From positions 54,487 through 118,486 of the forward strand of contig JAZRMX010000026.1 in assembly GCA_045647885.1 (NCBI GenBank): a stretch of DNA of 64,000 nt, written 5' to 3'. This document shows positions 644 through 15,168 of this stretch, one piece after another (positions within the stretch are counted from its first letter, which is position 1; each line of letters begins with the position of its first letter). Both the position numbers and the translations under genes were made by a program. The notes under the pieces were generated by a model that saw only the letters and a program-made list of their open reading frames with translations, made no database searches and was not told where the DNA came from. The stretch is from Bacteroidaceae bacterium (GTDB lineage Bacteria; Bacteroidota; Bacteroidia; Bacteroidales; Bacteroidaceae).

Positions 644-728
644 GGAGCGCGTATGAGAGCAACCGCAATGTGGTAGCCCACATATAAAATAGACAGAAAC
701 GGACAACCAGCGGGTTGTCCGTTTCTGT

Positions 729-1322
729 CTATAAAATCTCGGCAATGGTTATGCCATTGTTCTTTCCCACCACATAGCGCGTAACCCCGTCGTTGTTGAG
801 CGGGTTGCCGTTGCACATAATATTGTCGATATATAGCTGCTTTCCTTTTTCTATAATTGAGCACGAAAATTCATCCCCGGCTTTTATACTTGAATTAAGT
901 GCGTTTACAACCACGAAACGCCCGTTGCCTGTATGCTCAATTTCGCACAACCTGTCGGGCAACCAGCCAATTTTGACCCTTGTGCCGGGGGCAAGGTTGC
1001 TGCAAACGATGGCTTCGCTGCTCACAAAAACTTCTGATTCTCCTTTTTTCTCCTCTTTTGTTTTTGCACAAAAGTCGTTCCAATCTTTCGCACCGGTTAG
1101 CTGCGAGATAATGTTCAGAATCATTACAGAAATGCTGGCTCCTTTGCGAGTGGAGTAGCCCCACACTCTCTCGAGCGTGCTCACTGAAATGCGCTCTTTC
1201 AACCTTTCTTCTATAGTCTTCTGCAATTTGATAAAGAAGGTGTGCGATGTGCTTCCCCCAATCAGCTCCTCAATGCTTTTGCGCAAAGCCTCCATTTGTG
1301 GCGCGTCACTTTTTATATTCAT
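729..1322 (-). CDS. hypothetical protein (197 aa)
   Basis: Clean ORF divergent from the kinase gene. I cannot name any motif. The overlapping alternative-frame ORFs are shorter. Confidence 0.6.
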   Translation of the reverse strand: MNIKSDAPQMEALRKSIEELIGGSTSHTFFIKLQKTIEERLKERISVSTLERVWGYSTRKGASISVMILNIISQLTGAKDWNDFCAKTKEEKKGESEVFVSSEAIVCSNLAPGTRVKIGWLPDRLCEIEHTGNGRFVVVNALNSSIKAGDEFSCSIIEKGKQLYIDNIMCNGNPLNNDGVTRYVVGKNNGITIAEIL

Positions 1323-1409
1323 ATACTTTATGTTTTTTACAAAAATAACCCTTATATTTGAACGGCGTCAATTTTTTTTAATAAAAAGCGCAATTATAGT
1401 TTGTAAAAG

Positions 1410-2576
1410 ATGAAAGAAACAGTATCCGGTAGCGACACACTTACCCCGGTGAGTGCTCAGCTCGATTTTTCAACAACATACAACTCACCCGAAATTTATG
1501 CAGCCACATCCTCTGCAATGCTTTATCGTGTGCGCAAGGCCGGAAAATATTTCATTATAAAAACTCCAAAAAGTGGCGATGCCCGTTCTCTTTCTATGCT
1601 CAAGCGCGAGTATGAACTTTCCATAGGTAGGGCGCATCCCCATATTGTAAGTGTATTCACTTATGAACCCTCCACCATAGTGGGGTCGGGTATAGTAATG
1701 GAGTATATCGACGGGCGCAATTTAAAGGAATTTCTTGCCGAAAAGCCTTCCCTTGCAATGCGCCGCAGAGTACTGGGGCAGTTGTTGCAGGCTGTGGCAT
1801 ACATACACAGGAGTGGTCTTGTGCACAACGATATAAAGCCCGAAAATATAATGATAACCCGTGCCGATAATGATGTTAAACTCATAGACTTCGGCATAGC
1901 CGACAGCGACGCCTACTACCTTTCTCGCACGCTTGGCTGCACACCGCTTTATGCCTCGCCCGAGCTGCTTTCGCAGACAAGGGAGGTGGATGCGCGCAGC
2001 GATATATACTCGCTGGGCTTGATAATCAAAGAGCTCTTCCCCGGGCGACATTACTCGCGTGTGGTTTCGCGTTGCCTATATATAAATAAGGAGAAACGTT
2101 ACTCCAATGCCGAAGCTCTGCAACGCGCAGTGAGTCGTTATCATTATCCTTGCTATGCGTTCGCAGTTCTCCTTTTGTTATTGCTGGCCCTTTTGCCACT
2201 GTTTATGTATATGCGCGTGAGTAATGAACTTGCCGGCACGCAGCAGCACCTTCAGCAGCAACAGCGCATTATCGAAGAGAACAATGCGCGTGAGGCACAA
2301 AAGATAGCCTATGTGGACTCTGTAAAGAACATAATAAGGAGTCGTGTTGAAACAGCCTATAACCAAATACACGACTCCTTGAAAAATGAGCAGCCGCTTA
2401 CTCGAAGCAAATACCCCGACGTTTGCTCATCCTTTATGGTTAAAAGTTCTTGTATGGATATATGGAATGAGGGCAATGTGCCGTCGGAACATCTTGCCCA
2501 CCTCACTGCCTACGAAACATCTCTGAAAAACGAATATTTAGGGCGGTTCCTAAAGTCCGTAGGTTACGAAAAGTAG
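1410..2576 (+). CDS. Hanks-type serine/threonine protein kinase with one TM segment and a C-terminal domain
   Basis: Catalytic loop 'HNDIKPENIM', 'DFG' and 'SPE' motifs are present. A hydrophobic segment 'AFAVLLLLLLALLPLFMYM' is followed by a ~120-aa tail. Confidence 0.85.
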   Translation: MKETVSGSDTLTPVSAQLDFSTTYNSPEIYAATSSAMLYRVRKAGKYFIIKTPKSGDARSLSMLKREYELSIGRAHPHIVSVFTYEPSTIVGSGIVMEYIDGRNLKEFLAEKPSLAMRRRVLGQLLQAVAYIHRSGLVHNDIKPENIMITRADNDVKLIDFGIADSDAYYLSRTLGCTPLYASPELLSQTREVDARSDIYSLGLIIKELFPGRHYSRVVSRCLYINKEKRYSNAEALQRAVSRYHYPCYAFAVLLLLLLALLPLFMYMRVSNELAGTQQHLQQQQRIIEENNAREAQKIAYVDSVKNIIRSRVETAYNQIHDSLKNEQPLTRSKYPDVCSSFMVKSSCMDIWNEGNVPSEHLAHLTAYETSLKNEYLGRFLKSVGYEK

Positions 2577-3013
2577 CATATTTAATGTAAATGACAAAAA
2601 AAGACAAACTCTATTATTGTTTAATGCGTATATCTTTGCAATAGACAAAAAATGGAGGAGTAAATATATATAAAAAGCAATAGCCGATTAAAAAAACGGG
2701 GCGTTTCTTGCGTGTGTGTTTTTTTTAATATTAATTTGCTGAAAATACTGATAAACACGCGAGTGTTTGCCATTCTCGCTGATGAACCTAGGAAATTCAT
2801 TATCGATAAGAGAATCGCAAGCCCTGTCGCAATGTGTCGCGCATATATATGCGTGCGCTATTGGCGTAGGCTGTTGCTTTTTTCTTTATCACGGTTTTCC
2901 TAGGACCTATCAGCGGAAAAAAGACCAACAACCTGCGCTTTCTTTATGTCCGTACAATAAGGTCAAAGTCGCGGTTTGCTAAAGTTAAAGAGTCTATATT
3001 AAACCGTGATATT

Positions 3014-3580
3014 ATGAAAAACATTTCTTTAATTCTATTTCTTGGAGTGCTGCTCGCTGCTTGCAACCCTAAAGCCAAAATGGTGGAAGAGGCTTTTGGT
3101 AAAATGGAGGATATGTCACAGATTGGTACTGTGGAATACACCATTACAAAGCTGATTATTGCCAACGACAATTCTCTCTTCAAGTTCGGAGACAGAAAAA
3201 TTGTGTTCTCTTGCAAGGCTACAATGAAAGCCGGCATCAATTTGAAAGATTTTTCAAAGGAGGATGTTGAAATCACCAATAATGGTAAAAACGTAACTTT
3301 AAATCTCCCTTATCCCAAAGTGTTGGCATTTAATATGCCTGCCGACCAGGTGAAACTCGAATACTCAAAAGTGAGCGGTATGCGCGATGGTTATAACACC
3401 GAAGAGCGTAACGAACTTCTTAAGCAGGGCGAGGCTGCAATCCTCTCCGATGCATCAACAATTGGTATTATTGAGGACGCAAAAAAGAATGCAACCGACT
3501 TTTTTACAATGTTGCTTGCTCACTGCCAATTCGAAAATATAAATGTATGTTTCAAAGATACTACAACTGTAAAAAAATAA
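3014..3580 (+). CDS. DUF4230-like lipoprotein
   Basis: Lipobox 'LLAACN'. The core 'ATMKAGINLKDFSKEDVEITNNGKNVTLNLPYPKVL' matches my memory of the DUF4230 pattern (xGxDL ... LP xP xI). Confidence 0.7.
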   Translation: MKNISLILFLGVLLAACNPKAKMVEEAFGKMEDMSQIGTVEYTITKLIIANDNSLFKFGDRKIVFSCKATMKAGINLKDFSKEDVEITNNGKNVTLNLPYPKVLAFNMPADQVKLEYSKVSGMRDGYNTEERNELLKQGEAAILSDASTIGIIEDAKKNATDFFTMLLAHCQFENINVCFKDTTTVKK

Positions 3581-3583
3581 GTT

Positions 3584-4720
3584 ATGAGCATGTTTGATAA
3601 AATAGCCAAAAAAGTTGTTGGTGGTGCTGTGAGTAAAGTTGCAGAAAGCGCAAAAGAAAAGATTGAAAAAGCAGCAGAGACAGTTGTGGACAAAGCTGTA
3701 GATAAAGCAACAGAAGCTGTTATTGACAAAATGGGTGTTGCTTCTTCGGGCGAAGAACCCTCTACACCCAGCCCTTCACAAACAAGTGACGACAATAAAG
3801 AATGCAAAGTATCCAATGTTGTCGATGCAACTACTAAAATTGCCGATAATGTTACAAAAATTGCCGATACAGCATCAAAAGTTGCCAATGTCGTAGGTAC
3901 AGCAACGTCTGTCGGTGGTGCAGTTATGGGTGGAGTTGCAACCCCCATATTCGCACAGTTACCGGTTATTATAGGTATAATATTGCTTGTTGGTTCCTTA
4001 ACAACATTTTTGGTTGTTAACCCGTTTGGGTGGGACTACAACAATATCTTCGGTGGCGCTCCCAAGATTGAGAAGACTGCTAATGTAGTAGAAAAAGTAC
4101 GTAAAATATCGGAGTTTACAACAGCTTGTTACTATGAGGAGTATGTAATCAAAAACGAGAAATTAGGCGAGGAGAAAAGTTTCTTCTCTTCAAAAGTAGA
4201 TACCGTGAACTACGAGGTGGTGATAACCGTAAAAGGTTCCGTGCGTGCAGGCTTCGACCTCTCGGCTTTGGGAGAGCAAGATCTTATTGTAAGAGGCGAT
4301 ACCATAGATATCAAACTACCTGCTCCCCAAGTGTTCGATGTAATAAGTAACCCGTCGGACTACAAGATATTTGTAGAGACCGGCAAGTGGGAACACGACG
4401 AGATTGTAGCTATGCAGTCAAAGGGTAGAGAGCACACCCTCAACAATGCGCTCAACAGCAACCTCTTGCAGCGTGCCAACAAGGTGGGTAAAGAACGCAT
4501 CACAGCATTGTTCAACAACTTTGGATTCTCTGTAGTGAATGTAACCCTCACAGAGCCTGCTGCAGCACCCGAAGAGGTTGCCGAGGAAACAACCTCACCT
4601 GAAGAAACCATAGCTGCAGAAACCGAAGCCGTTGCCACCGACAGTATAGCAACTGCTACAGCACCCGAAGATGTTGTTGCTGCCGATAGCGCAACCGTTG
4701 AAGCTCCCACAGTTGAGTAA
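3584..4720 (+). CDS. DUF4230-domain membrane protein with Ala/Lys-rich N-terminal repeats and an acidic Ala/Thr/Glu-rich tail
   Basis: TM segment 'LPVIIGIILLVGSLTTFLVV'. The core 'VKGSVRAGFDLSALGEQDLIVRGDTIDIKLPAPQVF' is paralogous to the preceding gene. Only 3 nt separate it from that gene. Confidence 0.7.
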   Translation: MSMFDKIAKKVVGGAVSKVAESAKEKIEKAAETVVDKAVDKATEAVIDKMGVASSGEEPSTPSPSQTSDDNKECKVSNVVDATTKIADNVTKIADTASKVANVVGTATSVGGAVMGGVATPIFAQLPVIIGIILLVGSLTTFLVVNPFGWDYNNIFGGAPKIEKTANVVEKVRKISEFTTACYYEEYVIKNEKLGEEKSFFSSKVDTVNYEVVITVKGSVRAGFDLSALGEQDLIVRGDTIDIKLPAPQVFDVISNPSDYKIFVETGKWEHDEIVAMQSKGREHTLNNALNSNLLQRANKVGKERITALFNNFGFSVVNVTLTEPAAAPEEVAEETTSPEETIAAETEAVATDSIATATAPEDVVAADSATVEAPTVE

Positions 4721-4759
4721 TTGAAGCATTAATTAAAAAAACTTACAAATATTACTATT

Positions 4760-6055
4760 ATGGCAGATTTTATTTTGGATGGACGTACAAAAGTAAAGAC
4801 CATCAAAGCCGAATTTAAGGCAAATTTCGGAGCTACACTCCGCGTATATACAAATATTGCGTGCGAAGGTGAGCAGGCGAGTGACGATGCAACACTTGCT
4901 TCAATCCGTGCCGAAGGATACTCGGGTGGTGAACTTAATGTAAAGGGAAATATGAAGGTTGCGACTTTTGAGAAGAAAGTTGCCGAACTCTACGGTATTG
5001 GTGTTCAAGTTGCCAACGCCGACGATACAGAATTTGCCGACGATGCAGCAACACTTATGGGAGCAGCAACAACCTCATCGGCAACAAGCGGTCACGCCCA
5101 CGCTATTGAGACTCCTGCAACAGCCGAGGCCGGTCCCAATGTAGAGGTGAGTGCTCTTGAAAGTGCATCGGCAAAGGTTAGAGTTTATGGTAAAGCTCAA
5201 AACCGTACAGCATTGGGTATTGCTCACGCATACATGGTAATGTACCCCCACGCGACATTAGAAGACTTGCGTAAGGCATTCCCAAACTCACTAAACCCAG
5301 ATTCCGGTGTAAAAGAGAACTTCATTTATGCCGACGAGAAAGGATCGAACAATTGGAATGGTTACTTTAAGAGTGATGATGAAGTGATTACCACAGGTGA
5401 TGGTAAAAAAGTTGCAGTTGTACAGTTGTGGACAAAGCCTAGCTTTGAGCGTATTGTTGCTCACGCACGTGCTTACGATATAGTTGTTGCCAAGTTCGAG
5501 GCAGCCGACAAAGGAGGCAAAAAGGGTGGTTTCCGTCTCGAATACCTCAACGGCTATGTTCCCCCTGTACCCTCGAAGAAAAAAGGCTTCCTGTGGTTGT
5601 GGCTTCTCATTCTTCTTTTGCTTGCTCTTGGTCTCGCAATATTCTTTGCAACCCGCAAACCCGAGGTTGTAGAGGTAGAGAAGATTGTTGAGGTTGAAAA
5701 AATTGTATATGTAGAGCGCATTGAGGAGATTGAAAAAGACTTCAACGCAGCAACATTCATTGCCGGCAAAGCCGACCTTTCCGACGATGCCAAGTTTGTT
5801 CTTCACGACCTTGCCAAGGAGATGGCAAAGCACCCCGAGGTTAAGTTGCGCATCGTAGGCCACACCTCTTCAGAGGGCGACCCTGCGTTCAACCAGAAAC
5901 TTTCCGAGGAGCGCGCACTGGCTGCAGTAGACTTCCTTGTAGGTCGTGGAGTTGACCCCGCACGCCTCCAGTCCGAGGGAAAAGGTTCTTCAGAGCCCAT
6001 TGACGAGAACAACCTCGAGGCTAACCGTCGTACAGAATTCATTATTATTGAGTAA
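4760..6055 (+). CDS. Fusion protein: N-terminal double 'KVKTLK..F..FG..LRVY' module, unknown middle domain, TM segment and C-terminal OmpA-like peptidoglycan-binding domain
   Basis: The first ~100 aa are roughly 65% identical by eye to the 104-aa proteins at 7369 and 8768. TM segment 'FLWLWLLILLLLALGLAIFFA'. OmpA_C-like 'RIVGHTSSEGDPAFNQKLSEERALAAVDFLV..RRTEF'. Confidence 0.8.
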   Translation: MADFILDGRTKVKTIKAEFKANFGATLRVYTNIACEGEQASDDATLASIRAEGYSGGELNVKGNMKVATFEKKVAELYGIGVQVANADDTEFADDAATLMGAATTSSATSGHAHAIETPATAEAGPNVEVSALESASAKVRVYGKAQNRTALGIAHAYMVMYPHATLEDLRKAFPNSLNPDSGVKENFIYADEKGSNNWNGYFKSDDEVITTGDGKKVAVVQLWTKPSFERIVAHARAYDIVVAKFEAADKGGKKGGFRLEYLNGYVPPVPSKKKGFLWLWLLILLLLALGLAIFFATRKPEVVEVEKIVEVEKIVYVERIEEIEKDFNAATFIAGKADLSDDAKFVLHDLAKEMAKHPEVKLRIVGHTSSEGDPAFNQKLSEERALAAVDFLVGRGVDPARLQSEGKGSSEPIDENNLEANRRTEFIIIE

Positions 6056-6074
6056 TATTAAAAAACTTAAAGTT

Positions 6075-6209
6075 ATGGCAGTTAAAAAAACAAAAGACGG
6101 TACAGTTGACAAACGTACCAAAGAGGGAAAAGCTATTGCTGAGCGTATGGCAAAGGCACGTGCCGAAAAGAACAGCCTCAAAAACAGAATTAAAAGATGG
6201 TTTAAGTAA
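6075..6209 (+). CDS. small highly basic protein (44 aa), hypothetical
   Basis: ATG at 6075 is preceded by the same AAAACTTA A-rich leader seen before neighbouring genes. Sequence: 'MAVKKTKDGTVDKRTKEGKAIAERMAKARAEKNSLKNRIKRWFK'. Too short for strong support. Confidence 0.4.
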   Translation: MAVKKTKDGTVDKRTKEGKAIAERMAKARAEKNSLKNRIKRWFK

Positions 6210-6225
6210 CATTTTGACTACTATT

Positions 6226-6636
6226 ATGAATACAGAAATGAAACATATTGCCGCTTTGGTGGCAACATCAATATGGGCCGACGGCCAGTACGACGAAGCA
6301 GAGAAAATTGCTGTAGGCGAGATTGCCGACGCCTTTGAACTTAATGCCGACGAATTTGCAGCAGCAGTGGACAGTGAACTTGCCCTCATTGAGCCTATGA
6401 GCGAGGAAGAGGTAAACGTTTACATCCTTGAGCATTCGGCCGAAGTGGAGGAGGAAGAGGCCGAAATGTTGCTTCAGGCAGTTCTTCAGGTAGTAATTGT
6501 CAATGGCATCCTTGGCGAAGAAGAGGTAGAGAATGTACTCGCAATAGCTTCGGCACTTGGTATCAACGACTCACGCGCAGTGCTTATGCTTGCCGACCTT
6601 GTAAAAGAGGAACCCGAACTCCAGATTGAATTTTAA
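6226..6636 (+). CDS. TerB-like (tellurite-resistance TerB fold) acidic protein
   Basis: 'IAALVATSIWADGQYDEAEKIAVGEIAD' resembles the TerB 'ADG...E' helix pair. The start is set at ATG 6226 (MNTEMK), because the longer ORF from 6106 overlaps the preceding small gene. Confidence 0.5.
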   Translation: MNTEMKHIAALVATSIWADGQYDEAEKIAVGEIADAFELNADEFAAAVDSELALIEPMSEEEVNVYILEHSAEVEEEEAEMLLQAVLQVVIVNGILGEEEVENVLAIASALGINDSRAVLMLADLVKEEPELQIEF

Positions 6637-6720
6637 GAAGTTGTTTTAATCACAAATAGCCCCAGGCAAGAGTGAAACCTTACCGGGGCACACACATAAC
6701 CAAACATATATAAAATTACT

Positions 6721-6909
6721 ATGATACTTTTTGATATTGGCGCAGTATTGTTTTTGACAGGGCTCATATGGATAGTATGGTTCCTCATAAAAAGACTCTT
6801 TAGCGTAGTAATAGTTTCAATTGTTGTATCGCTTATTGGTGGCCTTCTAATGTTGATAGCCCACTATATAGTGATGGGAAACACATCTATTTTCGACAAA
6901 TACATATAA
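6721..6909 (+). CDS. small membrane protein (62 aa, two predicted TM segments)
   Basis: Two hydrophobic stretches, 'ILFDIGAVLFLTGLIWIVWFL' and 'VVIVSIVVSLIGGLLMLIAHYIV'. Same strand as the cluster. Confidence 0.5.
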   Translation: MILFDIGAVLFLTGLIWIVWFLIKRLFSVVIVSIVVSLIGGLLMLIAHYIVMGNTSIFDKYI

Positions 6910-6935
6910 TATAATTAACAAACAAGACAGACACT

Positions 6936-7298
6936 ATGGGACTTTTAAACAACATTTTGGACAGTTTCAAGAACGCAGAATTCACTGTAGCTCCTCAGAA
7001 GAAGCTCAAAACTATTTCGGCCGACTTTAAGAAGGCATTCGACCTAACCCTTGTATTCTACAAAGGTGTGCAGATAGCCGATGGTGAGCTTACCCTCGCT
7101 GCTCTCAACAAGAAGACCACAAAGGATGTGAAAAGCACAGCCGATGGCCTCAAGATTAAGGCAAGTATGAAGGTGGGTGATGCCGAGAAACTCTTCGACA
7201 CAAACTTTGGTGTAACCGTGCAGATAAAAGACAAGAGCGGTGCCAAACTCGTTCCCAATGAGATAACCATTGGCCAGGCTGCACGCGGCGAGTATTAA
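6936..7298 (+). CDS. divergent member of the double-module family (120 aa)
   Basis: Contains two module copies, 'KKLKTISADFKKAFDLTLVFY' and 'MKVGDAEKLFDTNFGVTVQIK', each followed by a 'xTL/TI' turn. Confidence 0.7.
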   Translation: MGLLNNILDSFKNAEFTVAPQKKLKTISADFKKAFDLTLVFYKGVQIADGELTLAALNKKTTKDVKSTADGLKIKASMKVGDAEKLFDTNFGVTVQIKDKSGAKLVPNEITIGQAARGEY

Positions 7299-7368
7299 AT
7301 AATGACTTTAATATTGTATAACTACAAATTTATAACTTTTTGGCTAACCATTAAAAACTTAAAACATT

Positions 7369-7683
7369 ATGGCAGAATTTAAATTGGATGGCCGTATGAA
7401 GGTCAAGACCTTGAAAGAGAATTTCAAAAAGAACTTTGGTAGCACATTGCGCGTGTACAAGAGCGTTACTTGCAAGGGTGCTATGGCTGACGATGATGCA
7501 ACATTGGCTTCACTCCGTGCCGAGGGTAAGACTGGTGGTGAGCTTACAGTAGGTGGCAACCTCCGCGTTGGTAACTTCGAGAAGAAGATTGCCGAGCTCT
7601 ACGGTATAGGTGTTCAGGTAGCTAACGCTGACGACAGCAAGCTTGCCGACAACGATATTACTCTTGTTGCTGCAGGTAAATAA
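7369..7683 (+). CDS. double-module family protein (104 aa), copy 1
   Basis: 'GRMKVKTLKENFKKNFGSTLRVY' and 'GNLRVGNFEKKIAELYGIGVQVA'. The protein is 100% identical to the product of 8768..9082. Confidence 0.8.
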   Translation: MAEFKLDGRMKVKTLKENFKKNFGSTLRVYKSVTCKGAMADDDATLASLRAEGKTGGELTVGGNLRVGNFEKKIAELYGIGVQVANADDSKLADNDITLVAAGK

Positions 7684-7705
7684 TCGTTAAAACCCGTATT
7701 AAGGT

Positions 7706-7729
7706 ATGCAGGGCTTGGTTGCCCTGCAT
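7706..7729 (+). terminator. 9-bp GC-rich hairpin downstream of the 104-aa gene (no U-tract)
   Basis: ATGCAGGGC-ttggtt-GCCCTGCAT lies 23 nt after the stop. It lacks a T-run, so its terminator role is tentative. Confidence 0.45.
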
Positions 7730-7806
7730 ATCACTAAAAAACAAATTGTTTTCATAAAAGGGTTATTCGCTTTATGCAGCTTTATTTATAACTCACAAAA
7801 TTTAGA

Positions 7807-8733
7807 ATGGTGGCAAAGTTAAAAGACATATCAGCTAAGGATGCAGCGACTCACCTCAAAGAGGTGCAAGATGTATTTAATCTCCTTGCGAAAAAGGATG
7901 TTTACAAATCTGGATTTTCAGAAGATAAAGGGGCTATATCAAAGGTCTTTAAAAGCATCAAGGAAGTGAGCAAAACAGACATCCTTGTTCGTCTTACACT
8001 CATTGATAGTATGTACTCTACTCAGATGAGTCGTCGCTACTATGCCCTCGATGAGTTGGCTACGGCTTTGTTTAAACTGTCGGGCGGGAAAGATGGTAAG
8101 TTAGAACAGATGTTCCTTGATTTTGCTGCTGCACCTGAGCAAAAAGTGCATCTTTTTGACTACGAGGAGAGAGACGATAAAGGAAATATCGTGTGTAAAA
8201 ACCTATTTTCTGAATGCTATGGAATTGGTAAAGGTGGTGCCGACAAAGGTGTTGCTATCTCCCTTATAAGCAAGTATGCATACTTTGAAACCAATTTCAA
8301 ATTCCCTATCTATGACTCTATTGCTTGCGAAATATATCCATTAGTTTGGCACTTTTGTGGTTTTGGAAAAGATAAGCCCAAACTCATACATAGTGAAAAT
8401 GGAAAAGTAGTTGGTGACAGGACAATGGTAGAGTATGTTAAAGCGATAAACCTGCTAATAGATAAGATAGATTGCAAAGAAGTTAACTACGACTTGCTCG
8501 ATCGTTTCCTGTGGTTCGTGGGCAAGATTCGTCGAGGCAATCTCTCCCTGGTTTTGTCGCGTGAGGAGTATATAGCCACTATAAACATATTCAAAGCACA
8601 AAACGTAACCGAAGAATCAAGTGAGTACTTTAATATTGAAAAGGTAGATTTGAGTAAACTTACATATTTGAAGAAAAACTCTTTGTTGTATAAGTTTTTT
8701 GAATTTGCAAGAATTTACGGACATAAGAAATAA
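7807..8733 (+). CDS. hypothetical protein (308 aa), AT-rich cargo between the direct repeats
   Basis: Clean ORF. Spot counts of 60-nt lines give about 32-45% GC, against about 50% for most neighbouring genes. Motifs 'SLISKYAYFETNFKFPIYDS' and 'LDRFLWFVGK' remind me weakly of OGG-fold/HhH-like uncharacterised families. Confidence 0.7.
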   Translation: MVAKLKDISAKDAATHLKEVQDVFNLLAKKDVYKSGFSEDKGAISKVFKSIKEVSKTDILVRLTLIDSMYSTQMSRRYYALDELATALFKLSGGKDGKLEQMFLDFAAAPEQKVHLFDYEERDDKGNIVCKNLFSECYGIGKGGADKGVAISLISKYAYFETNFKFPIYDSIACEIYPLVWHFCGFGKDKPKLIHSENGKVVGDRTMVEYVKAINLLIDKIDCKEVNYDLLDRFLWFVGKIRRGNLSLVLSREEYIATINIFKAQNVTEESSEYFNIEKVDLSKLTYLKKNSLLYKFFEFARIYGHKK

Positions 8734-8767
8734 GAGCATTTATTAACCATTAAAAACTTAAAACATT

Positions 8768-9082
8768 ATGGCAGAATTTAAATTGGATGGCCGTATGAAG
8801 GTCAAGACCTTGAAAGAGAACTTCAAAAAGAACTTTGGTAGCACATTGCGCGTGTACAAGAGCGTTACTTGCAAGGGTGCTATGGCTGACGATGATGCAA
8901 CACTTGCTTCACTCCGTGCCGAGGGTAAGACTGGTGGTGAGCTTACTGTAGGTGGCAACCTCCGCGTTGGTAACTTCGAGAAGAAGATTGCCGAGCTCTA
9001 CGGTATTGGTGTTCAGGTAGCTAACGCTGACGACAGCAAGCTTGCCGACAACGATATTACTCTTGTTGCTGCAGGTAAATAA
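8768..9082 (+). CDS. double-module family protein (104 aa), copy 2
   Basis: Identical protein to 7369..7683. The five nucleotide differences within the CDS are all synonymous. Confidence 0.8.
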   Translation: MAEFKLDGRMKVKTLKENFKKNFGSTLRVYKSVTCKGAMADDDATLASLRAEGKTGGELTVGGNLRVGNFEKKIAELYGIGVQVANADDSKLADNDITLVAAGK

Positions 9083-9104
9083 TCGTTAAAACCCGTATTA
9101 AGGT

Positions 9105-9128
9105 ATGCAGGGCTTGGCTGCCCTGCAT
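9105..9128 (+). terminator. hairpin, second copy (loop ttggct)
   Basis: Same stem as 7706..7729. The single difference is in the loop. Confidence 0.45.
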
Positions 9129-9158
9129 ATCACTATAACATTTTAAGAACTTATAACT

Positions 9159-9401
9159 ATGAGTAAAGAGTATTACAAAAAGAGAATTATTGACCTTCGT
9201 GCGTCAATTGAGAGGGAGAGAGAGGCCAAGAAACGTGATAATGATAATTATTCACGTTGGATTAAGAGTGCAACTTCGCCTTCGTCAAAGGCAAGTTACC
9301 GCAAGAGCAAAATTGATGCGGCAGCACGTCACGATAACCAGATTGAGTATCTTAAACGACAGATTGAGAGTGCCAAGGATTCACTGCGTCGCTGCAAGTA
9401 A
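9159..9401 (+). CDS. small charged coiled-coil protein (80 aa), hypothetical
   Basis: Lys/Arg/Glu-rich helical sequence 'RIIDLRASIEREREAKKRDNDN...QIEYLKRQIESAKDSLRR'. An A-rich leader containing 'GAACTTA' precedes it. Confidence 0.55.
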   Translation: MSKEYYKKRIIDLRASIEREREAKKRDNDNYSRWIKSATSPSSKASYRKSKIDAAARHDNQIEYLKRQIESAKDSLRRCK

Positions 9402-9407
9402 TGGTAT

Positions 9408-9719
9408 ATGATATTATTTTTAGCATACATAATAAACCTGTTTGCTCCTACAATAAACCTTATTGGCTTGTTGGGGCTGTGTGGGTGTGTGGTGTATGAG
9501 GATTTTTATGTTCTCGTAATTGCTGCACTGATGTTTGTTGCAGGCTTGTTCTTTGGGCGACTGGCTTATGGGCTCGATATTCCACCGCGTTGGTTTTGGG
9601 CAAAGTCGAAAAATCAACTTTTTTCTTTTACAGTAACAGCAGTGCTGGGTTATGCGTGGAGTATTGCAATGTGGCCTTGTGCCATATATCTTGTATCCAT
9701 AATAATTAAACGTATTTGA
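9408..9719 (+). CDS. small membrane protein (103 aa, 3-4 TM segments), hypothetical
   Basis: Hydrophobic segments throughout. It starts 6 nt after the previous stop. Confidence 0.55.
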   Translation: MILFLAYIINLFAPTINLIGLLGLCGCVVYEDFYVLVIAALMFVAGLFFGRLAYGLDIPPRWFWAKSKNQLFSFTVTAVLGYAWSIAMWPCAIYLVSIIIKRI

Positions 9720-9723
9720 TACT

Positions 9724-9885
9724 ATGAAATTCGGTCTTTCATTCTCGCTCAAGCGTGCCTTGGGTGTTACTGCGGTAAAGCAGAAGATTGCTAAAAAAAC
9801 GGGTATTCCTCTTACAAAGCAGGGCTTGGAACGCAAAATCGGTGGTGCAATATTGGGTGCTATTACCGGTAAAAAGAGAAAATGA
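9724..9885 (+). CDS. small basic protein (53 aa), hypothetical; not in the supplied ORF track
   Basis: Hand translation gives 'MKFGLSFSLKRALGVTAVKQKIAKKTGIPLTKQGLERKIGGAILGAITGKKRK*'. It starts 4 nt after the previous stop. Its short length limits support. Confidence 0.35.
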   Translation: MKFGLSFSLKRALGVTAVKQKIAKKTGIPLTKQGLERKIGGAILGAITGKKRK

Positions 9886-10038
9886 TGAGGTGGTTTAAGT
9901 TATTGCCTTGCTTGGTGATTGCGTCTCTTGCACTTGCTTGCGGCCCAAATGGAGAGCTTGTGGGCGATGCTATTGATGCGGGTAATCTCAAAGAGGCTGA
10001 AAGGCTTTTGAGAGAAATTTAATGAAACAATGCACTAA

Positions 10039-11355
10039 ATGAAGATGAAGTTTCTTGGAATTGTAGCTTTGGCTTGTCTGCTGGTGGTATTTTGCAGCTG
10101 CGGTGGTTCTGTGGGCAATGGTGGCTACGACGATGGCAGCGTGAAACTGTCGGAACGTGAGGCTTATCGTTATGACATGGCCTTGCGTGAGGTTGAGAGC
10201 CTCGAGAAAATGTTTGAAGAGGTTATTGCAGCTCCCACACAGGAGAATATTGCATTATTGCTTGTAAAGGCGAAGGGGGTAAAGTACAGTTATAACGACA
10301 ATGGAATGAATGCTGCAACGCTGGAGCATTGCGATTCTCTGAAGGCCCGTATGGAGGAGTATCAGCAACGCGCCCTCGGGATTGCCGAGTCTTTCCTTAT
10401 CTCTACCGGAGATATAAAGGTTGTAAATATCGAGGATAAGCTCTTTACCGAAAATGCTTATTATCCCATCTATCTAAAGAAGGGGGAGAAACTTTTCTAT
10501 AATATTGAGTCGTCGAAAGTGCTTACTGCAAAACTTTATAATTCCGACACCGAAGAGTTGCTGAAATCCTTCAAGAAGAGTGAGATTACCGACTCGTTCA
10601 CTGTGCGCAACACTGGAATATATCTTATGGAGATTGCGCCGCAGGGAAAGCAGTATGTGAGTGTGGTAATGAGCTACAGGCCTGTGAAAGCAGAGGATAT
10701 ATACAGCCGCCCTACAATATATACCGAGCAGGTGGAGTGCAAGAAGGGTGATATTGGTGCAAAGGGTGTTCCCGGTGTAATTATGCGAAAATGTTTTGAG
10801 GAGCCACGCAAGTTTACCCTCCGTGGCCAGCTTAAAGCTGCATTCTCGGGAAATGCGAAGGCTTTGGTGGCAGTGCCGCTGCCTGCCGGTACAACAGACC
10901 TCCTTTATACAATGCGTATTGCTACAAGTGAGAGCAACCGTTCCGAGGATGGACAGTTCCACGATAACCTGTCGCGTTCTTATTCGCGCGTGAAATTCTT
11001 GGGTCTCCCTCTTTATGAAAAGACATCGAGCAATGGATTGCTCAATACCTTGCTCGACGATAACCGCCCCATACGCGACGAGGATGCTTACTGCAGTATG
11101 TATGTGTTCCGCAAACAGGCTGCGGCTAAGCAGTTCCAGGATGGAACAAAGCCTGTTTCGCAGCTTGCTTATGATGTGGATTATTCAACAGTAGGCACTC
11201 AGTCGTGCAATGGCCGCATCCCTACAAATGGCGCAAAGACCATATATCTTGGTTTCGAGAATGAGCGTGTGCGTTACACCAACTATCTGTGGGTGGAGGT
11301 GGAAGCTGTTGTGCCGAATACAGTGTACTATACCACCAAATATAGCATAAACTAA
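10039..11355 (+). CDS. lipoprotein of unknown function (438 aa)
   Basis: Signal peptide plus lipobox 'LLVVFCSCGG'. A beta-rich middle part ('GEKLFYNIESSKVLTAKLYNSD...GIYLMEIAPQGKQYVSVVMSY') resembles pre-peptidase/PPC-like beta-sandwiches. This is tentative. Confidence 0.7.
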   Translation: MKMKFLGIVALACLLVVFCSCGGSVGNGGYDDGSVKLSEREAYRYDMALREVESLEKMFEEVIAAPTQENIALLLVKAKGVKYSYNDNGMNAATLEHCDSLKARMEEYQQRALGIAESFLISTGDIKVVNIEDKLFTENAYYPIYLKKGEKLFYNIESSKVLTAKLYNSDTEELLKSFKKSEITDSFTVRNTGIYLMEIAPQGKQYVSVVMSYRPVKAEDIYSRPTIYTEQVECKKGDIGAKGVPGVIMRKCFEEPRKFTLRGQLKAAFSGNAKALVAVPLPAGTTDLLYTMRIATSESNRSEDGQFHDNLSRSYSRVKFLGLPLYEKTSSNGLLNTLLDDNRPIRDEDAYCSMYVFRKQAAAKQFQDGTKPVSQLAYDVDYSTVGTQSCNGRIPTNGAKTIYLGFENERVRYTNYLWVEVEAVVPNTVYYTTKYSIN

Positions 11356-11388
11356 AACTTATAAGTATACTTATAACTATCAACTATT

Positions 11389-11901
11389 ATGGCAACTACT
11401 ACGAAGAAGACAACAGTTGCAAAACCTGCTGCCAAGAAGACAACTGCTGCAAAACCTGCTGCAAAGAAAACCACTGAAGCGAAGGCAACTGCAAAACCTG
11501 CTGTTAAAAATAATGAGATTTCCGTAACTGGTAATAAGAAGATTGAGACTCTTTGTAAGGAGTTTAATAGAAAGTTCCCTTATCTAAGATTAGGTATATA
11601 TTATAGCTATGCCCGTCAGCAGGTAGCAAAAGGAGAAACAATAACCCGAATACCTGGTGACAAGACATTGGCTTCTGTTCGCAGAGTCGATTCGGGTGGC
11701 GATATTTCTATCTCCGGCAACAAGAAAGTAAAATCTTTGGAGAAAGAGTTTGATACGGTTTTTGGTCTCTACTGCCAAATATGTTACTCAAAAGTTGAGG
11801 GTGGAAGATATTATACATCGGGCAGTTTTGACGATATGACACTTTCCGGTCTTAACTCTTATGGCGAGAAGAATGGGTTTAAAAAAGGTGAGTGGAAGTA
11901 A
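11389..11901 (+). CDS. histone-H1-like Lys/Ala/Thr-rich tail fused to two copies of the cluster module
   Basis: N-terminus 'KKTTVAKPAAKKTTAAKPAAKKTTEAKATAKPA'. It is followed by 'GNKKIETLCKEFNRKFPYLRLGIY' and 'GNKKVKSLEKEFDTVFGLYCQICY'. Confidence 0.75.
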   Translation: MATTTKKTTVAKPAAKKTTAAKPAAKKTTEAKATAKPAVKNNEISVTGNKKIETLCKEFNRKFPYLRLGIYYSYARQQVAKGETITRIPGDKTLASVRRVDSGGDISISGNKKVKSLEKEFDTVFGLYCQICYSKVEGGRYYTSGSFDDMTLSGLNSYGEKNGFKKGEWK

Positions 11902-12503
11902 TGCGAATCCTATTGACAGGCTTTGAGCCGTTTGGAAAATACAATGAGAATTCGTCGTGGGTGGTTGCCGAAAAGGTAGCTACCCAGGACTTTTTTGGGA
12001 TGGATGTGGTTCTTAAGCAGATGCCGGTGAGCTTTGCCGGCGTAGCTAAGGCGTTGCGCGATGCGGTAGATGAGTGCAACCCCGCTGCGGTTGTAATGCT
12101 TGGACAGGCTGCCAGTATAGATTATATTAAGCTGGAACGCATTGCAATAAATATGATGGATGCTGCGGCTGCCGACAATGACGGATACATTGCAGACGAG
12201 GAGCCAATCTCCATTGATGGTGCGGCGGCTCTCTTTACAAACGTGGATGTCAAGGCTCTGTGCAGGGCTGTGGAGGAACAGGGGATTCCCGCAAAGGTGT
12301 CCAACAGTGCCGGGCTCTATGTGTGCAACCGTATTTATTACGAGGCATTGCAACTTTGTGGTGAGAGACCGGGAATGAAGGTGCTGTTCGTTCACTTGCC
12401 GTTCTATACAGGACAGCTACCGGTAACAGAGGGGAAACCATCAATGCTACTCGATACAATAATAAAGGCTGTGGAATTTGTAATAAATGAAATAAGTAAA
12501 TGA
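11901..12503 (+). CDS. pcp: pyroglutamyl-peptidase I (pyrrolidone-carboxylate peptidase)
   Basis: 'MRILLTGFEPFG' N-terminus, 'SNSAGLYVCN' (catalytic Cys region) and 'FVHLP' (His region). ATG 11901 overlaps the preceding TAA (TAATG). Confidence 0.85.
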   Translation: MRILLTGFEPFGKYNENSSWVVAEKVATQDFFGMDVVLKQMPVSFAGVAKALRDAVDECNPAAVVMLGQAASIDYIKLERIAINMMDAAAADNDGYIADEEPISIDGAAALFTNVDVKALCRAVEEQGIPAKVSNSAGLYVCNRIYYEALQLCGERPGMKVLFVHLPFYTGQLPVTEGKPSMLLDTIIKAVEFVINEISK

Positions 12504-14197
12504 CACGAGTAGAAAAAATCAAGAAACAGCTTGCGCGCGTCTTTGACAACGACTTGCGTACCAAGCAATGGGAAAATATTCCCGACTATGTGATTATAGC
12601 TCTTATAGTAATAAGTACTCTTTCGGTATTCCTGGCAACGTTCAATGTGGGGCCTCTTTGTGAGAAGGTGCTCTCTGTGATAGACATTGTTACGGTAATA
12701 GCATTTACCATTGAGGTTACATTGCGTATTTGGGCTGCCGACCTGATTGACGAAAAGTACAAGGGCTTTTGGGGCAGGGTGCGTTACTGCTTCACCTTCT
12801 ATGGAATGGTCGATATTCTTTCGACATATACTTTTTATGTGGCAATGTTCTTCCCATTGCCTTATTCGGCGCTGAAGACTTTGCGTGTGTTGCGTCTTTT
12901 ACGTGTGTTCCGCTATATGCACTCGTTCCGCCTGTTGCAGACTGCCATTACTTCAAAGGCCCAGGAGATGTGGGTGTCGCTGCAGTTCCTTGTTATTGTT
13001 ACATTGATGCTCTCCTTTGTGCTGTTCTTCTATGAACACGCGGCACAGCCCGATGTGTATGACAATGGTTTCAAGTCTGTTGTGTGGGCTTTTGCCCAAT
13101 ATGTGGGAGACCCCGGCGGCTTTGCCGATACACCGCCCGTTACTTTCCCCGGTAGGCTAATTGCGTGTATTATTGGTTTGCTTGGAATTGCTCTTTTTGC
13201 CGTTCCTGCCGGTCTTATTGGTGCCGGTTTTTCCGAGGCTATGGAGGATGAGCAGAAGAGAAATACAATCTTGAAAAATACCAAAAAACTTAACCTGGCC
13301 TTTGAACGCAAACTCGACCGCCCGACCGGTTATCAGGTGGTGCCTCCTTATTTGTCAATCATAGAGATACAGGCTCGAATGGGTATGACGGTGAATGAAA
13401 TTTTGGATGCTGTTGAGGATTCCTGTAATTTCCGTTTGATAAACGTTGCTGCAACACAGACCATAGACGAGCATCCACAGGACAAGCTTGCAGTGGAACA
13501 TTTTCCAAATAACAGGCCTTATGGTTATTGCATTGACCGCGGTTCAAAGGTGACTATAATATCTCCCTCGAGTCTTGTGGATCCTTGTGTGGGCAACTTC
13601 TTCTATTATCTGGCGTTGATTGGTGGATTTAACTACATAAGCCGTGAAATTGGTGTGTTGCGTCCTTACAAATCATACTATACGTTTGCCGACCGTTATA
13701 ACCACGAGGAGAACCTGCCGTTGTATATGGAGGACTTGGAGCGTCTTACCTCGCGCGAGGGTAGCTGGACAATTACCTCACTTATTTCAAGTGGTGCCAA
13801 TGAACCTGAATATCCTACAAAATTCCACTTTGCTATTGGTGGCAAAAAGGGTGACGAGAGTTTCGAAGGTGAAAATCTTGTTGTAGAGGATATTGCTGCT
13901 TATCGTTCTTTCTACGATGATATTACTGCGGAATTGAAGGAGGAGTATGGTATGGAGTCGGACCACCAGAGGTATCACAACACAGCAGTGGAAAACCTTT
14001 ATGTCCGTAAATTTGAGGAGGGTAAGGGCTGCCGCAATAATATAATTGTGCGCTTTGCCTGGAGTGCTACTTTGTGGGATTCACGACGCATTGCCATTGC
14101 CAAGACTTTTGCCGATGTCATTAACCGCCATTTTGAGGCTGATGTCGAAAAAGAGTACGCACCCGAATTGAAGGAGAAAAAACACGGTTATCTGTAA
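12500..14197 (+). CDS. voltage-gated-type ion transport protein with a large C-terminal cytoplasmic domain
   Basis: S4-like 'TLRVLRLLRVFRYMHSFRLL'. Pore-region-like 'WAFAQYVGDPGGFAD' followed by a final TM segment. ATGA overlap with the pcp stop. Confidence 0.75.
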   Translation: MTRVEKIKKQLARVFDNDLRTKQWENIPDYVIIALIVISTLSVFLATFNVGPLCEKVLSVIDIVTVIAFTIEVTLRIWAADLIDEKYKGFWGRVRYCFTFYGMVDILSTYTFYVAMFFPLPYSALKTLRVLRLLRVFRYMHSFRLLQTAITSKAQEMWVSLQFLVIVTLMLSFVLFFYEHAAQPDVYDNGFKSVVWAFAQYVGDPGGFADTPPVTFPGRLIACIIGLLGIALFAVPAGLIGAGFSEAMEDEQKRNTILKNTKKLNLAFERKLDRPTGYQVVPPYLSIIEIQARMGMTVNEILDAVEDSCNFRLINVAATQTIDEHPQDKLAVEHFPNNRPYGYCIDRGSKVTIISPSSLVDPCVGNFFYYLALIGGFNYISREIGVLRPYKSYYTFADRYNHEENLPLYMEDLERLTSREGSWTITSLISSGANEPEYPTKFHFAIGGKKGDESFEGENLVVEDIAAYRSFYDDITAELKEEYGMESDHQRYHNTAVENLYVRKFEEGKGCRNNIIVRFAWSATLWDSRRIAIAKTFADVINRHFEADVEKEYAPELKEKKHGYL

Positions 14198-14265
14198 ATA
14201 TTTTTATTGTACGAGGGTTGATATTTTATTAGGCAAAATGTTTAGTCCTTACATTCGAAAATCTT

Positions 14266-15168
14266 ATGATATTTTTAGATAGTTTCAGTTTTCCTACTTT
14301 TGAAGAAGAAGATAATTTCTTGGCTGCCTATTATCGTGAAAATCCGTATAGTATGAAGTCTGTATATCCTTTTAAGACTCTTTCTATAAGAGGGTTGCAT
14401 TCTTTGGATTTTGACGAGATAACATTGCTTTATGGCGGAAATGGTTCTGGCAAGTCAACGGCTTTAAATGCGATTGCTAATAAGTTGGAGGTGGCCCGTA
14501 GCTCGGCATATAACAAAGGGGATTTCTATAGTGAGTATATGGATATGTGCGACTATGAGATTGGGGACTTTGATGAATATGTCTTGAATTTGAAAGATTG
14601 CGCAACGCTGATAACCAGTGACGATATTTTTAAATATATGCTTGATATTCGTCAGAGGAATGGGCGGGTGAGAGTGCATCGTGATGATACAATACAAAAC
14701 TGGATGAATGAACGCACTTCTCGCATAACCCATATAAATTTTGAGACTGGAGAAGGGGTAGATGAACTAAGGCGTTACCAGAGAGCTAAACGCCAGTCGT
14801 GTCAACAGTATGTTCGTGAGAATTTAGGAGAAGTAGTACCCTCATATTCAAATGGCGAAACTGGATTTATGAAGTTTATAGATAACATTGTACCTGATAG
14901 GTTGTATATTCTTGACGAGCCTGAAAATAGTTTGTCGTGTGAGTTGCAAATGAAACTTGCGCAGTATATTAAAGAATCGGCTCGTTTTTTTGGCTGTCAA
15001 TTTATTATTGCAACGCATTCTCCTTTTTTATTGGCAATAGAAGGTGCTAAAATATATAATTTGGATGCAGAACCTGCTACTGTTTCTAAATTTTGGGAGT
15101 TGCCTAATATGAAGCTATATTATGAACTTTTTAAAAATTATGAAAAAAGGTTTATTGGCAATAGTTGA
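14266..15168 (+). CDS. AAA/ABC-type ATPase (AAA_21-like), stand-alone
   Basis: Walker A 'GGNGSGKST', Walker B-like 'LYILDEPENSLS' and 'ATHSPFLL'. Visibly AT-rich; spot counts give about 33-38% GC. Confidence 0.8.
   Translation: MIFLDSFSFPTFEEEDNFLAAYYRENPYSMKSVYPFKTLSIRGLHSLDFDEITLLYGGNGSGKSTALNAIANKLEVARSSAYNKGDFYSEYMDMCDYEIGDFDEYVLNLKDCATLITSDDIFKYMLDIRQRNGRVRVHRDDTIQNWMNERTSRITHINFETGEGVDELRRYQRAKRQSCQQYVRENLGEVVPSYSNGETGFMKFIDNIVPDRLYILDEPENSLSCELQMKLAQYIKESARFFGCQFIIATHSPFLLAIEGAKIYNLDAEPATVSKFWELPNMKLYYELFKNYEKRFIGNS

Follow-up and report, generated by a model that had tools for sequence, protein, structure and literature searches.

Paired modules of putative ubiquitin-like fold in a Bacteroidaceae gene cluster may act as adaptors of an envelope-anchored complex

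What is the small module that recurs in pairs in five genes of a Bacteroidaceae bacterium, and what could so many copies of it do in one gene cluster? The window, by which we mean the whole stretch of DNA that was analysed, comprises 64,000 nucleotides (contig JAZRMX010000026.1 of assembly GCA_045647885.1, positions 54,487 to 118,486 of the forward strand). A preliminary description of it had reported ten copies of the module in five genes of the + strand. We use the term di-module for the pair of modules, about 100 amino acids (aa) long, and B, C and D type for the 120-aa, 104-aa and 170-aa proteins, respectively. Our best explanation as a whole, to which we give an even chance, is that the di-module is a tandem of half-ubiquitin units serving as a protein-protein adaptor in the assembly of an envelope-anchored complex, possibly a conflict system. 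The five open reading frames (ORFs) and their tandem pairs, scored with a hidden Markov model (HMM) of the di-module, are as follows.

4760-6055, + strand: ORF of the 431-aa protein
4760-5068, + strand: N-terminal di-module of the 431-aa protein, residues 1-103 (HMM 158 bits); module 1 at 4760-4927, module 2 at 4928-5068
6936-7298, + strand: B-type stand-alone protein, 120 aa; di-module at 6966-7286 (HMM 128 bits)
6936-6965 plus the first domain residues, + strand: conserved N-terminal peptide of the B type, MGLLNNILDSFKNAEF
7369-7683, + strand: C-type protein, copy a, 104 aa (HMM 183 bits); module 1 at 7369-7536, module 2 at 7537-7680
8768-9082, + strand: C-type protein, copy b, 104 aa, identical to the protein of copy a
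11389-11901, + strand: D-type protein, 170 aa (open reading frame)
11389-11502, + strand: polycationic, low-complexity tail of the D type rich in K, T, A and P, residues 1-38
11503-11856, + strand: D-type di-module with insertions, residues 39-156 (HMM 130 bits)
11857-11898, + strand: conserved C-terminal extension of the D type

The genes, coordinates and tandem arrangement reported earlier are therefore sound; the count of ten is not, since the two 104-aa proteins are an identical recent duplicate and leave eight independent modules. The di-module of the 431-aa protein is 66.7% identical to the 104-aa protein.

Pairwise alignments of the four distinct proteins span the whole two-module unit with 38-141 bits, and module 1 aligns with module 2 weakly (21-27 bits). 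When a profile of the window's four distinct first modules was compared with the second modules, shuffled sequences reached the real score 0, 3, 6 and 0 times in 500 each. With 149 family representatives, the profile of module 1 matches that of module 2 at 98.3% probability (P 1.5e-14) over 45 columns. Judged by these sequence comparisons, the internal repeat of ~50 aa is real. Across the family, module 1 has the consensus InGRMKVKTLKxxFKeeFGlTLRVYdGrsFADDdATLASIRk and module 2 the consensus GGElsxxgNmKVGNFEkKxxExFGIKVQVAgsDDsyLcdNdlTLAaA, and the module pattern first put forward agrees with both. The halves differ in charge, module 1 being basic (mean +3.3, positive in 89%) and module 2 acidic (mean -2.0, negative in 81%). 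It is as a pair of ~100 aa that the modules evolve and recur, and not singly.

The module belongs to no named family, as had been supposed. Scans of the five proteins found no model for it in Pfam-A, NCBIfam, PHROGs or PADLOC, and public annotations give it no name. Two NCBIfam matches of the 104-aa protein, PRK06702 and slr0373, lie far below their cut-offs and were dismissed as noise; a PDB sequence search with the di-module profile returned a tail-fibre protein alone (E 2.4), which was also dismissed. The 104-aa and 120-aa proteins each have more than 1000 close homologues that carry no Pfam domain and are either unnamed or called 'hypothetical protein'; among the 1065 homologues of the 104-aa protein none has a name. 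Searching a profile against 1.84 billion cluster representatives at E <=1e-3 gave a family of 1148 clusters at 50% identity, 585 of them below 1e-10, mainly from Bacteroidota, and single members occur on hundreds of gut-metagenome contigs. Literature searches on DUF4230, on β-grasp, TerB and OmpA in Bacteroidetes, and on KAP with ubiquitin-like proteins gave no description of the domain or the cluster.

An AlphaFold2 model of the 104-aa protein (18-row alignment; pLDDT 89.4, pTM 0.79) gives each module two strands with a 12-residue helix between them, followed by two single-residue bridges and a short helix, which agrees with the small cytoplasmic β-α-β module originally proposed. The β-grasp fold is a five-stranded mixed sheet around one helix (β1-β2-α1-β3-β4-3₁₀-β5). 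In a Foldseek search of the PDB, the top matches are all tandem ubiquitin-like proteins (linear di-ubiquitin, ISG15), at the weak level of E 1e-2, TM-score 0.33 and a root-mean-square deviation (rmsd) of ~15 Å. From the low global TM-score and the large rmsd we read that one module matches one ubiquitin unit while the mutual orientation of the two differs. Taken singly, a module superposes on the ubiquitin-like domains (UBLs) of HOIL-1L and Parkin over 46-47 columns at 1.9-2.0 Å (Foldseek, PDB), and many viral ubiquitins in BFVD superpose on one module at 2.2-2.8 Å; overall, the UBL superpositions cover 46-51 residues at 1.9-2.8 Å, with two true strands plus bridges per ~50 residues. The best whole-domain match in BFVD is W6B1I5, a 96-aa protein of the jumbo phage Erwinia phage Ea35-70 (probability 0.97, TM-score 0.5, 8% identity); going by the models, this uncharacterised protein may share the tandem architecture.

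Weak sequence signals lead in the same direction. In hhalign, the module profile matched a small ubiquitin-family alignment at 75% (P 2.5e-5; the ubiquitin sequences were entered by hand, so this counts as a lead), with module positions 5-49 placed on ubiquitin 14-59 and reversed controls at 0.1%. The five top matches of the module profile among PDB sequences are all ISG15 (E ~1), in the same register. Among relatives, the eight-module protein P0250 matches Ubiquitin_TPR1 (PF23603) with 29.3 bits against a cut-off of 27 and P0383 touches FERM_F1; the di-module proteins of the window have no Pfam match for the module. All four signals agree on one register, and the 'D-x-TL' turn of the module corresponds to the ubiquitin loop 'DGRTLSDY'. 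Our conclusion, held with moderate confidence, is that each module represents a shortened ubiquitin-like unit that corresponds to β2-α1-β3-β4-3₁₀ of ubiquitin, with the first strand missing and no β5 of its own. The early guess of a β-grasp-like fold thus gains from the Foldseek, BFVD, hhalign, PDB profile and Pfam signals, all of which point to ubiquitin-like proteins.

Ubiquitin-like proteins are accordingly the best structural counterparts of one module, namely di-ubiquitin, ISG15 and the UBLs of Parkin and HOIL-1L. The di-module shares with the first two a tandem arrangement and with eukaryotic UBL adaptors a position N-terminal to unrelated domains. It differs from ubiquitin in that a module of ~50 residues has neither the first strand nor its own β5, in that Gly-Gly and conjugation machinery are lacking, and in a sequence similarity below family thresholds. 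It differs from di-ubiquitin in that the halves form one compact unit of ~100 aa (pTM 0.79) in another mutual orientation, hence the global rmsd of ~15 Å. A conjugated modifier, as in Bil/Bub or type II CBASS-like systems, would suit the ubiquitin-like fold signals and the conserved ...AAGK ending of the small stand-alone proteins. We nevertheless reject it as largely refuted and hardly probable at all, because a C-terminal Gly-Gly is lacking and no ThiF/E1, E2 or JAB gene is annotated in the loci with precomputed Pfam annotation; the domain is also N-terminal, with long extensions, in most members. β-Grasp domains also include families that bind soluble ligands and RNA. A regulatory domain resembling TGS, SLBB or ACT, sensing a small molecule, a nucleotide or RNA, would be in keeping with the conserved basic character of the first half and with fusions to the C-terminal domain of ribosomal L7/L12. 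We give this reading little credence: no TGS, SLBB or other ligand-binding β-grasp match appeared in the Pfam, PDB profile or Foldseek searches, the conserved positions are mainly core hydrophobics, and both the multiple paralogues per locus and the di-module-di-module fusions fit protein assembly better.

We surveyed 64 genome loci, one genome per species, that encode close relatives of the 104-aa protein. Their hosts are Alloprevotella (95% identical), other Bacteroidaceae, Alistipes, Paludibacteraceae, Muribaculaceae, Porphyromonas and Flavobacteriales (42-45%), and one contig of Helicobacter cetorum encodes close relatives as well. The 95% identity makes Alloprevotella, or a lineage near it, the probable source of the window. 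Di-module genes number 2-8 per locus, eight being reached in one. The B type is present in 43 of the 64, always together with the C type, and the D type in 21; the paralogue types (~104, ~120 and basic-tailed ~170 aa) co-occur from Flavobacteriales to Bacteroidales; the 120-aa type keeps its N-terminal peptide, 'MGLxNNxxDxFKNAEF'. In a wider architecture survey of 153 di-module proteins, the di-module is N-terminal in 146 and is usually followed by a basic linker. The 116 extensions (110 proteins have a C-terminal one) form 71 similarity clusters; among the C-terminal ones 79% are net acidic, and four contain a transmembrane (TM) segment. Few fusion partners were recognised in a domain scan (108 scanned): DUF4116 (6), the BspA-type leucine-rich repeat (LRR) domain LRR_5 (3), the ribosomal L7/L12 C-terminal domain (2) and, once each, FGE-sulfatase, DUF6273, OmpA, TerB and Endonuclea_NS_2. 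The TerB fusion is among the representatives and, from its sequence, would be P0261. Up to four di-modules stand in one chain, and P0243, encoded in the same kind of cluster, joins a C-type di-module, an L12 C-terminal domain and a D-type di-module. Such N-terminal placement before diverse domains is the behaviour of an adaptor or docking unit, not of an enzyme or a conjugated tag. The clustering of paralogues and the fusions make a binding or oligomerisation role, as anticipated in the preliminary description, the best reading.

At two loci (L076, 810-9253; L077, 1043-8428), FGE-sulfatase or DUF6273 fusions adjoin stand-alone copies of the same C-terminal domains, amid genes for a DNA methylase, a KAP NTPase, DUF4268 and Schlafen/AlbA_2. 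This layout resembles cassette exchange in polymorphic systems.

The window itself has a variable part. The two 104-aa genes lie in a direct DNA repeat of 392 bp (7345-7736 and 8744-9135) with six mismatches, of which the five within the coding sequence are all synonymous; both copies therefore appear to be kept under selection. Between the repeats lies a 308-aa gene of no known family (7807-8733), which looks like a cassette inserted by recombination between the 104-aa genes, to judge from this arrangement. On contigs with an identical 104-aa protein (L001-L004), the stretch between the 120-aa and 80-aa genes, 7300-9160 in the window, varies in content: LRR_5, LEM-3-like GIY-YIG, PDDEXK_4, HI_0787_N and the 308-aa gene are found between the repeated 104-aa genes. 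The LRR genes of this stretch have counterparts that are fused to di-modules elsewhere. For the GIY-YIG, PDDEXK_4 and 308-aa (X308) genes, tested as split fusions, no di-module-fused counterparts were found. Of the genes that follow the 104-aa genes, the LRR genes alone consequently bear out the idea of split fusion proteins. In a marine locus (L120), a di-module pair likewise has a GIY-YIG gene (6610-7341) immediately upstream.

A constant N-terminus joined to hypervariable C-termini, copies of FGE-sulfatase and DUF6273 that stand alone next to fusions with the same domains, repeated 104-aa genes that bracket variable ones and one Endonuclea_NS_2 fusion could together indicate polymorphic effectors, the di-module targeting variable C-termini to a secretion or injection apparatus while downstream cassettes recombine in. 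We find this quite improbable. The loci examined show no secretion-system, PAAR/VgrG/Rhs, extracellular contractile injection system (eCIS) or immunity-gene pattern; the partners are mostly binding-type or uncharacterised acidic domains rather than toxins, with one nuclease-type partner among 108 scanned; the most conserved members are stand-alone di-module proteins free of cargo; and one di-module sits permanently on the cytoplasmic side of an inner-membrane protein. The proteins do not qualify as polymorphic toxins, although their variable C-termini and stand-alone cassettes resemble the recombination logic of such toxins.

That inner-membrane protein is the 431-aa protein, and it suggests to what an adaptor might dock. 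Its parts beyond the di-module are the following.

5165-5584, + strand: conserved middle domain, residues 136-275, cytoplasmic (AlphaFold2 pLDDT 85.9, pTM 0.83)
5585-5653, + strand: TM segment, residues 276-298, preceded by KKK (read from sequence)
5756-6028, + strand: OmpA-like peptidoglycan-binding domain, residues 333-423 (PF00691 E 6e-17, 62.2 bits against 27.2)

A fold search with the middle domain against the PDB gave no credible match (best E 0.26, TM-score <0.27), and from its model the domain may have a fold that is new or has diverged strongly. We place the N-terminus in the cytoplasm because of the KKK before the TM segment (positive-inside rule) and because OmpA-like domains are periplasmic. 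The peptidoglycan-binding motif of the OmpA family is N-x2-L-S-x2-R-A; the 431-aa protein has it as NQKLSEERALAAV and scores above the PF00691 threshold. In the fetched loci the middle domain without a di-module occurs in TM-OmpA proteins of ~301 aa (60 ORFs) or tail-anchored proteins of ~165 aa (4 ORFs), and many further database proteins have this form. A di-module precedes the middle domain in 9 ORFs, as in the 431-aa protein, and follows it in 4 ORFs of other lineages. The best indirect argument for di-modules working with this platform, and probably binding to it, comes from fusion in both orders combined with the conserved adjacency of the genes. Its layout of a single TM segment and a C-terminal OmpA-like domain is that of MotB, long-form TssL and YiaD-type anchors; the NCBIfam matches to these cover the OmpA domain only and fall far below the cut-offs (e.g. 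83.7 against 175 bits). In contrast to such anchors, the protein has a large cytoplasmic part of 275 aa, made up of a di-module and a domain without a fold match, and its TM segment has no acidic residue as that of MotB has.

The D-type protein provides the second architecture on which a function might be built. Polycationic tails are found in most of the D-type proteins listed from Bacteroidales (31-82 aa, net +7 to +24), two 140-aa D-type ORFs being tailless, and the D-type proteins of Flavobacteriales have none. The 'histone-H1-like tail' described at first is indeed polycationic and rich in K, T, A and P, but its match to HC2 (PF07382) is below threshold (22.2 bits against 40; 13.7 against 135 for NF038052) and the resemblance is one of K/A/T/P composition. 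A housekeeping tether between nucleoid and envelope has been considered, in which the basic-tailed 170-aa protein and the TM-OmpA protein bind one another through their di-modules and link DNA to membrane and wall. The tail is common in Bacteroidales, the same loci encode a platform of the TM-OmpA kind that has a cytoplasmic domain, the cluster retains small basic proteins, and a tail and a peptidoglycan anchor in one conserved locus are compatible with tethering a polyanion to the envelope. We think the tether, which may be one sub-function of the assembly, unlikely all the same, as it rests on two architectures only, the Flavobacteriales proteins lack the tail, the H1/HC2 match is sub-threshold, the cargo across the family is mostly acidic and highly variable, and a strain-variable cluster linked to KAP and restriction genes fits a housekeeping function badly.

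The link to KAP proteins bears on what an adaptor-built assembly might be for. In the most distant loci, those of Flavobacteriales and Helicobacter, the sole persistent neighbour of the di-module genes is a soluble KAP nucleoside triphosphatase (NTPase; PF07693 E 1e-35 to 1e-47), which lacks the TM insert typical of KAP proteins and accompanies di-module genes across phyla; in Helicobacter and L077 it carries a DUF4268 C-terminus. The KAP orthologues match one another at E 1e-49 to 1e-88 and lie on the same strand as the di-module genes in 22 of the 64 genome loci, with hosts in Bacteroidales, Flavobacteriales and one Helicobacter genome. The gene is present in 11 of the 28 loci with full flanks and in 7 of 26 independent metagenome loci >=8 kb, and the gap is <=432 bp for 14 of 23 KAP genes. 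Representative positions are 17864-18465 in L010, 19691-20312 in L012, 10747-12504 in L023, 11017-12957 in L066, 8204-9946 in L070 and 10397-12250 in L073; in L010 and L012, the closest relatives of the window, KAP comes right after the tailed paralogue. The genes flanking distant loci include GmrSD and PvuRts1I/SRA restriction enzymes, and elsewhere KAP adjoins a di-module-DUF6273 protein with a Schlafen/AlbA_2 gene nearby. Helicobacter cetorum (L066, NZ_FZMR01000019, 8262-12957) has three di-module genes in tandem, which share 60% identity with the Bacteroidales type and, together with the KAP-DUF4268 gene, adjoin a GmrSD restriction gene, an arrangement that probably reflects horizontal transfer of a minimal unit into a defence island.

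KAP NTPases have recently been shown to act against phages (PMC13552941). The published KAP defence proteins, PifA, QatA of qatABCD and EF_KAP (PMC13552941, PMC13279940), share with our loci a PF07693 orthologue, here the most phylogenetically persistent non-module neighbour. They are, however, single fused proteins or part of the qatABCD operon, ubiquitin-like partners are not described for them in the literature found, and the 64-kb window has no KAP gene. From the occurrence in its relatives, the window may have lost the NTPase or may keep the gene elsewhere in the genome, which we offer as one of our weaker suggestions.

Assembly by di-module adaptors could then proceed as follows. The free 104-aa, 120-aa and 170-aa proteins would dock through their di-modules onto the platform formed by the middle domain, the TM segment and the OmpA domain at the inner membrane face, to which one di-module is already fused in the 431-aa protein, and docking would bring along the cargo of each protein. 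For the D type this cargo would be the polycationic tail, able to bind DNA, RNA or another polyanion; elsewhere it would be an LRR, a lectin-like, a nuclease or an uncharacterised acidic domain. As a weaker step, the assembly may belong to an NTPase-associated conflict or envelope-stress system, which we hold probable because of the KAP adjacency, the turnover of nuclease and LRR genes, and the position of distant loci among restriction genes. More speculatively, and with doubt prevailing, the di-modules, platform, TerB, small basic proteins and dedicated soluble KAP could make up an undescribed envelope-anchored class of antiphage or anti-invader system that is widespread in Bacteroidota; the adaptors would in that case bring sensor or effector domains that can replace one another (LRR, lectin-like, nuclease, acidic) to a hub fixed to peptidoglycan.

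Several observations weigh against this explanation. No single signal of homology to ubiquitin is significant alone (Foldseek E 1e-2, HMMER E ~1, hhalign 75%, the last against a reference alignment entered by hand), and the global TM-score to di-ubiquitin is as low as 0.33. The proposed interactions draw on fusions, which are indirect evidence, and most fusion partners are not recognisable effectors. Neither a KAP ORF nor a tblastn remnant of one was found in the 64-kb window, and the KAP gene is not adjacent in about two thirds of the loci. The possibility that the linked KAP NTPases contain a hidden di-module was ruled out by HMM searches, which found no match to the module or the di-module at E up to 10 with filters off. 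PADLOC has nothing for the module. The family was found neither in phage and plasmid collections (tblastn) nor in two IMG/VR scans, so in the sets searched it is not phage- or plasmid-borne. Finally, some of the Bacteroidales cluster may amount to no more than synteny, since pyroglutamyl peptidase, the ion channel and DUF4230 have no obvious connection.

Amongst known conflict systems a close parallel is with the effector-associated adaptor domains (EADs), bacterial Death-like domains of systems centred on an NTPase (Kaur et al., eLife 2020, PMC7159879). Both are small N-terminal domains placed before many unrelated domains, occur in several copies per locus on different proteins, are associated with an NTPase, and have FGE-sulfatase/LRR-type and OmpA partners. 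EADs are defined by their presence on both NTPase and effector (PMC7159879), whereas the KAP NTPase here carries no di-module, so the di-module does not count as an EAD. Its fold is moreover α/β and ubiquitin-like, not a helical bundle, and the NTPase belongs to the KAP rather than the STAND family and is present in about a third of the loci.

The survey of phylogenetic distribution and gene neighbourhoods suggested with the preliminary description has thus yielded 1148 clusters, 64 genome loci, the fusions and the KAP link. A large nameless family, with no entry in Pfam or NCBIfam, is brought to light, and two half-folds making one domain would extend the β-grasp repertoire. For a block of genes called 'hypothetical' in gut Bacteroidales, which are abundant, candidate roles emerge as paralogue triad, platform and KAP partner, and a di-module family beside one KAP subfamily is a possible entry point to the partners and mechanisms of KAP proteins. 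Even if the conflict reading fails, what the cluster defines would be an envelope-associated complex, so far uncharacterised, in a major phylum.

From 3014 to 14197 every credible gene lies on the + strand with gaps of -4 to 123 bases, which makes one or few transcription units likely. A scan of 1-15000 for sigma-70 promoters and terminators found nothing above the shuffled expectation, such scans being ill suited to Bacteroidota, and the operon structure is taken solely from gene spacing. The genomic contexts first described were recognised again: the OmpA match, the TM segment, the K/T/A/P-rich tail and, interleaved, two DUF4230 genes (PF14014, 93.7 and 91.5 bits against 27), TerB, small TM proteins and a lipoprotein. 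The recurrent neighbours, with their frequencies in the 64 loci, are these.

6075-6209, + strand: small basic 44-aa protein, a conserved cluster partner; with TerB in 29
6226-6636, + strand: TerB-domain protein (PF05099 28.4 bits against 24.4)
9159-9401, + strand: 80-aa basic coiled-coil protein, the most frequent non-module neighbour, in 42; also in the rumen locus L118
12500-14197, + strand: Ion_trans channel of 565 aa (PF00520 E 1.7e-21), its start overlapping the preceding gene, in 38

The OmpA domain is present in 36 of these loci, the middle domain of the 431-aa protein in 35, the 53-aa basic protein in 29, the 438-aa lipoprotein in 21, pyroglutamyl peptidase in 20 and the DUF4230 pair in 16. 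The small, strongly basic proteins of 44, 80 and 53 aa (6075-6209, 9159-9401 and 9724-9885) are all kept across many loci. At 11892-14197, the pyroglutamyl peptidase gene begins before the 170-aa gene has ended and itself ends after the Ion_trans gene has started at 12500, so that functionally unrelated-looking genes are tightly coupled; in L074 two Ion_trans paralogues stand in tandem. Just before the DUF4230 pair, on its upstream side, comes a gene for a membrane-anchored Ser/Thr kinase (1410-2576; Pkinase, E 1.5e-32), which has the same place in L001 and L002. Directly after the channel gene, 14266-15168 encodes a 300-aa AAA_15/AAA_21 ATPase (AbiEii/OLD-like, ABC-type), which is also found in L001.

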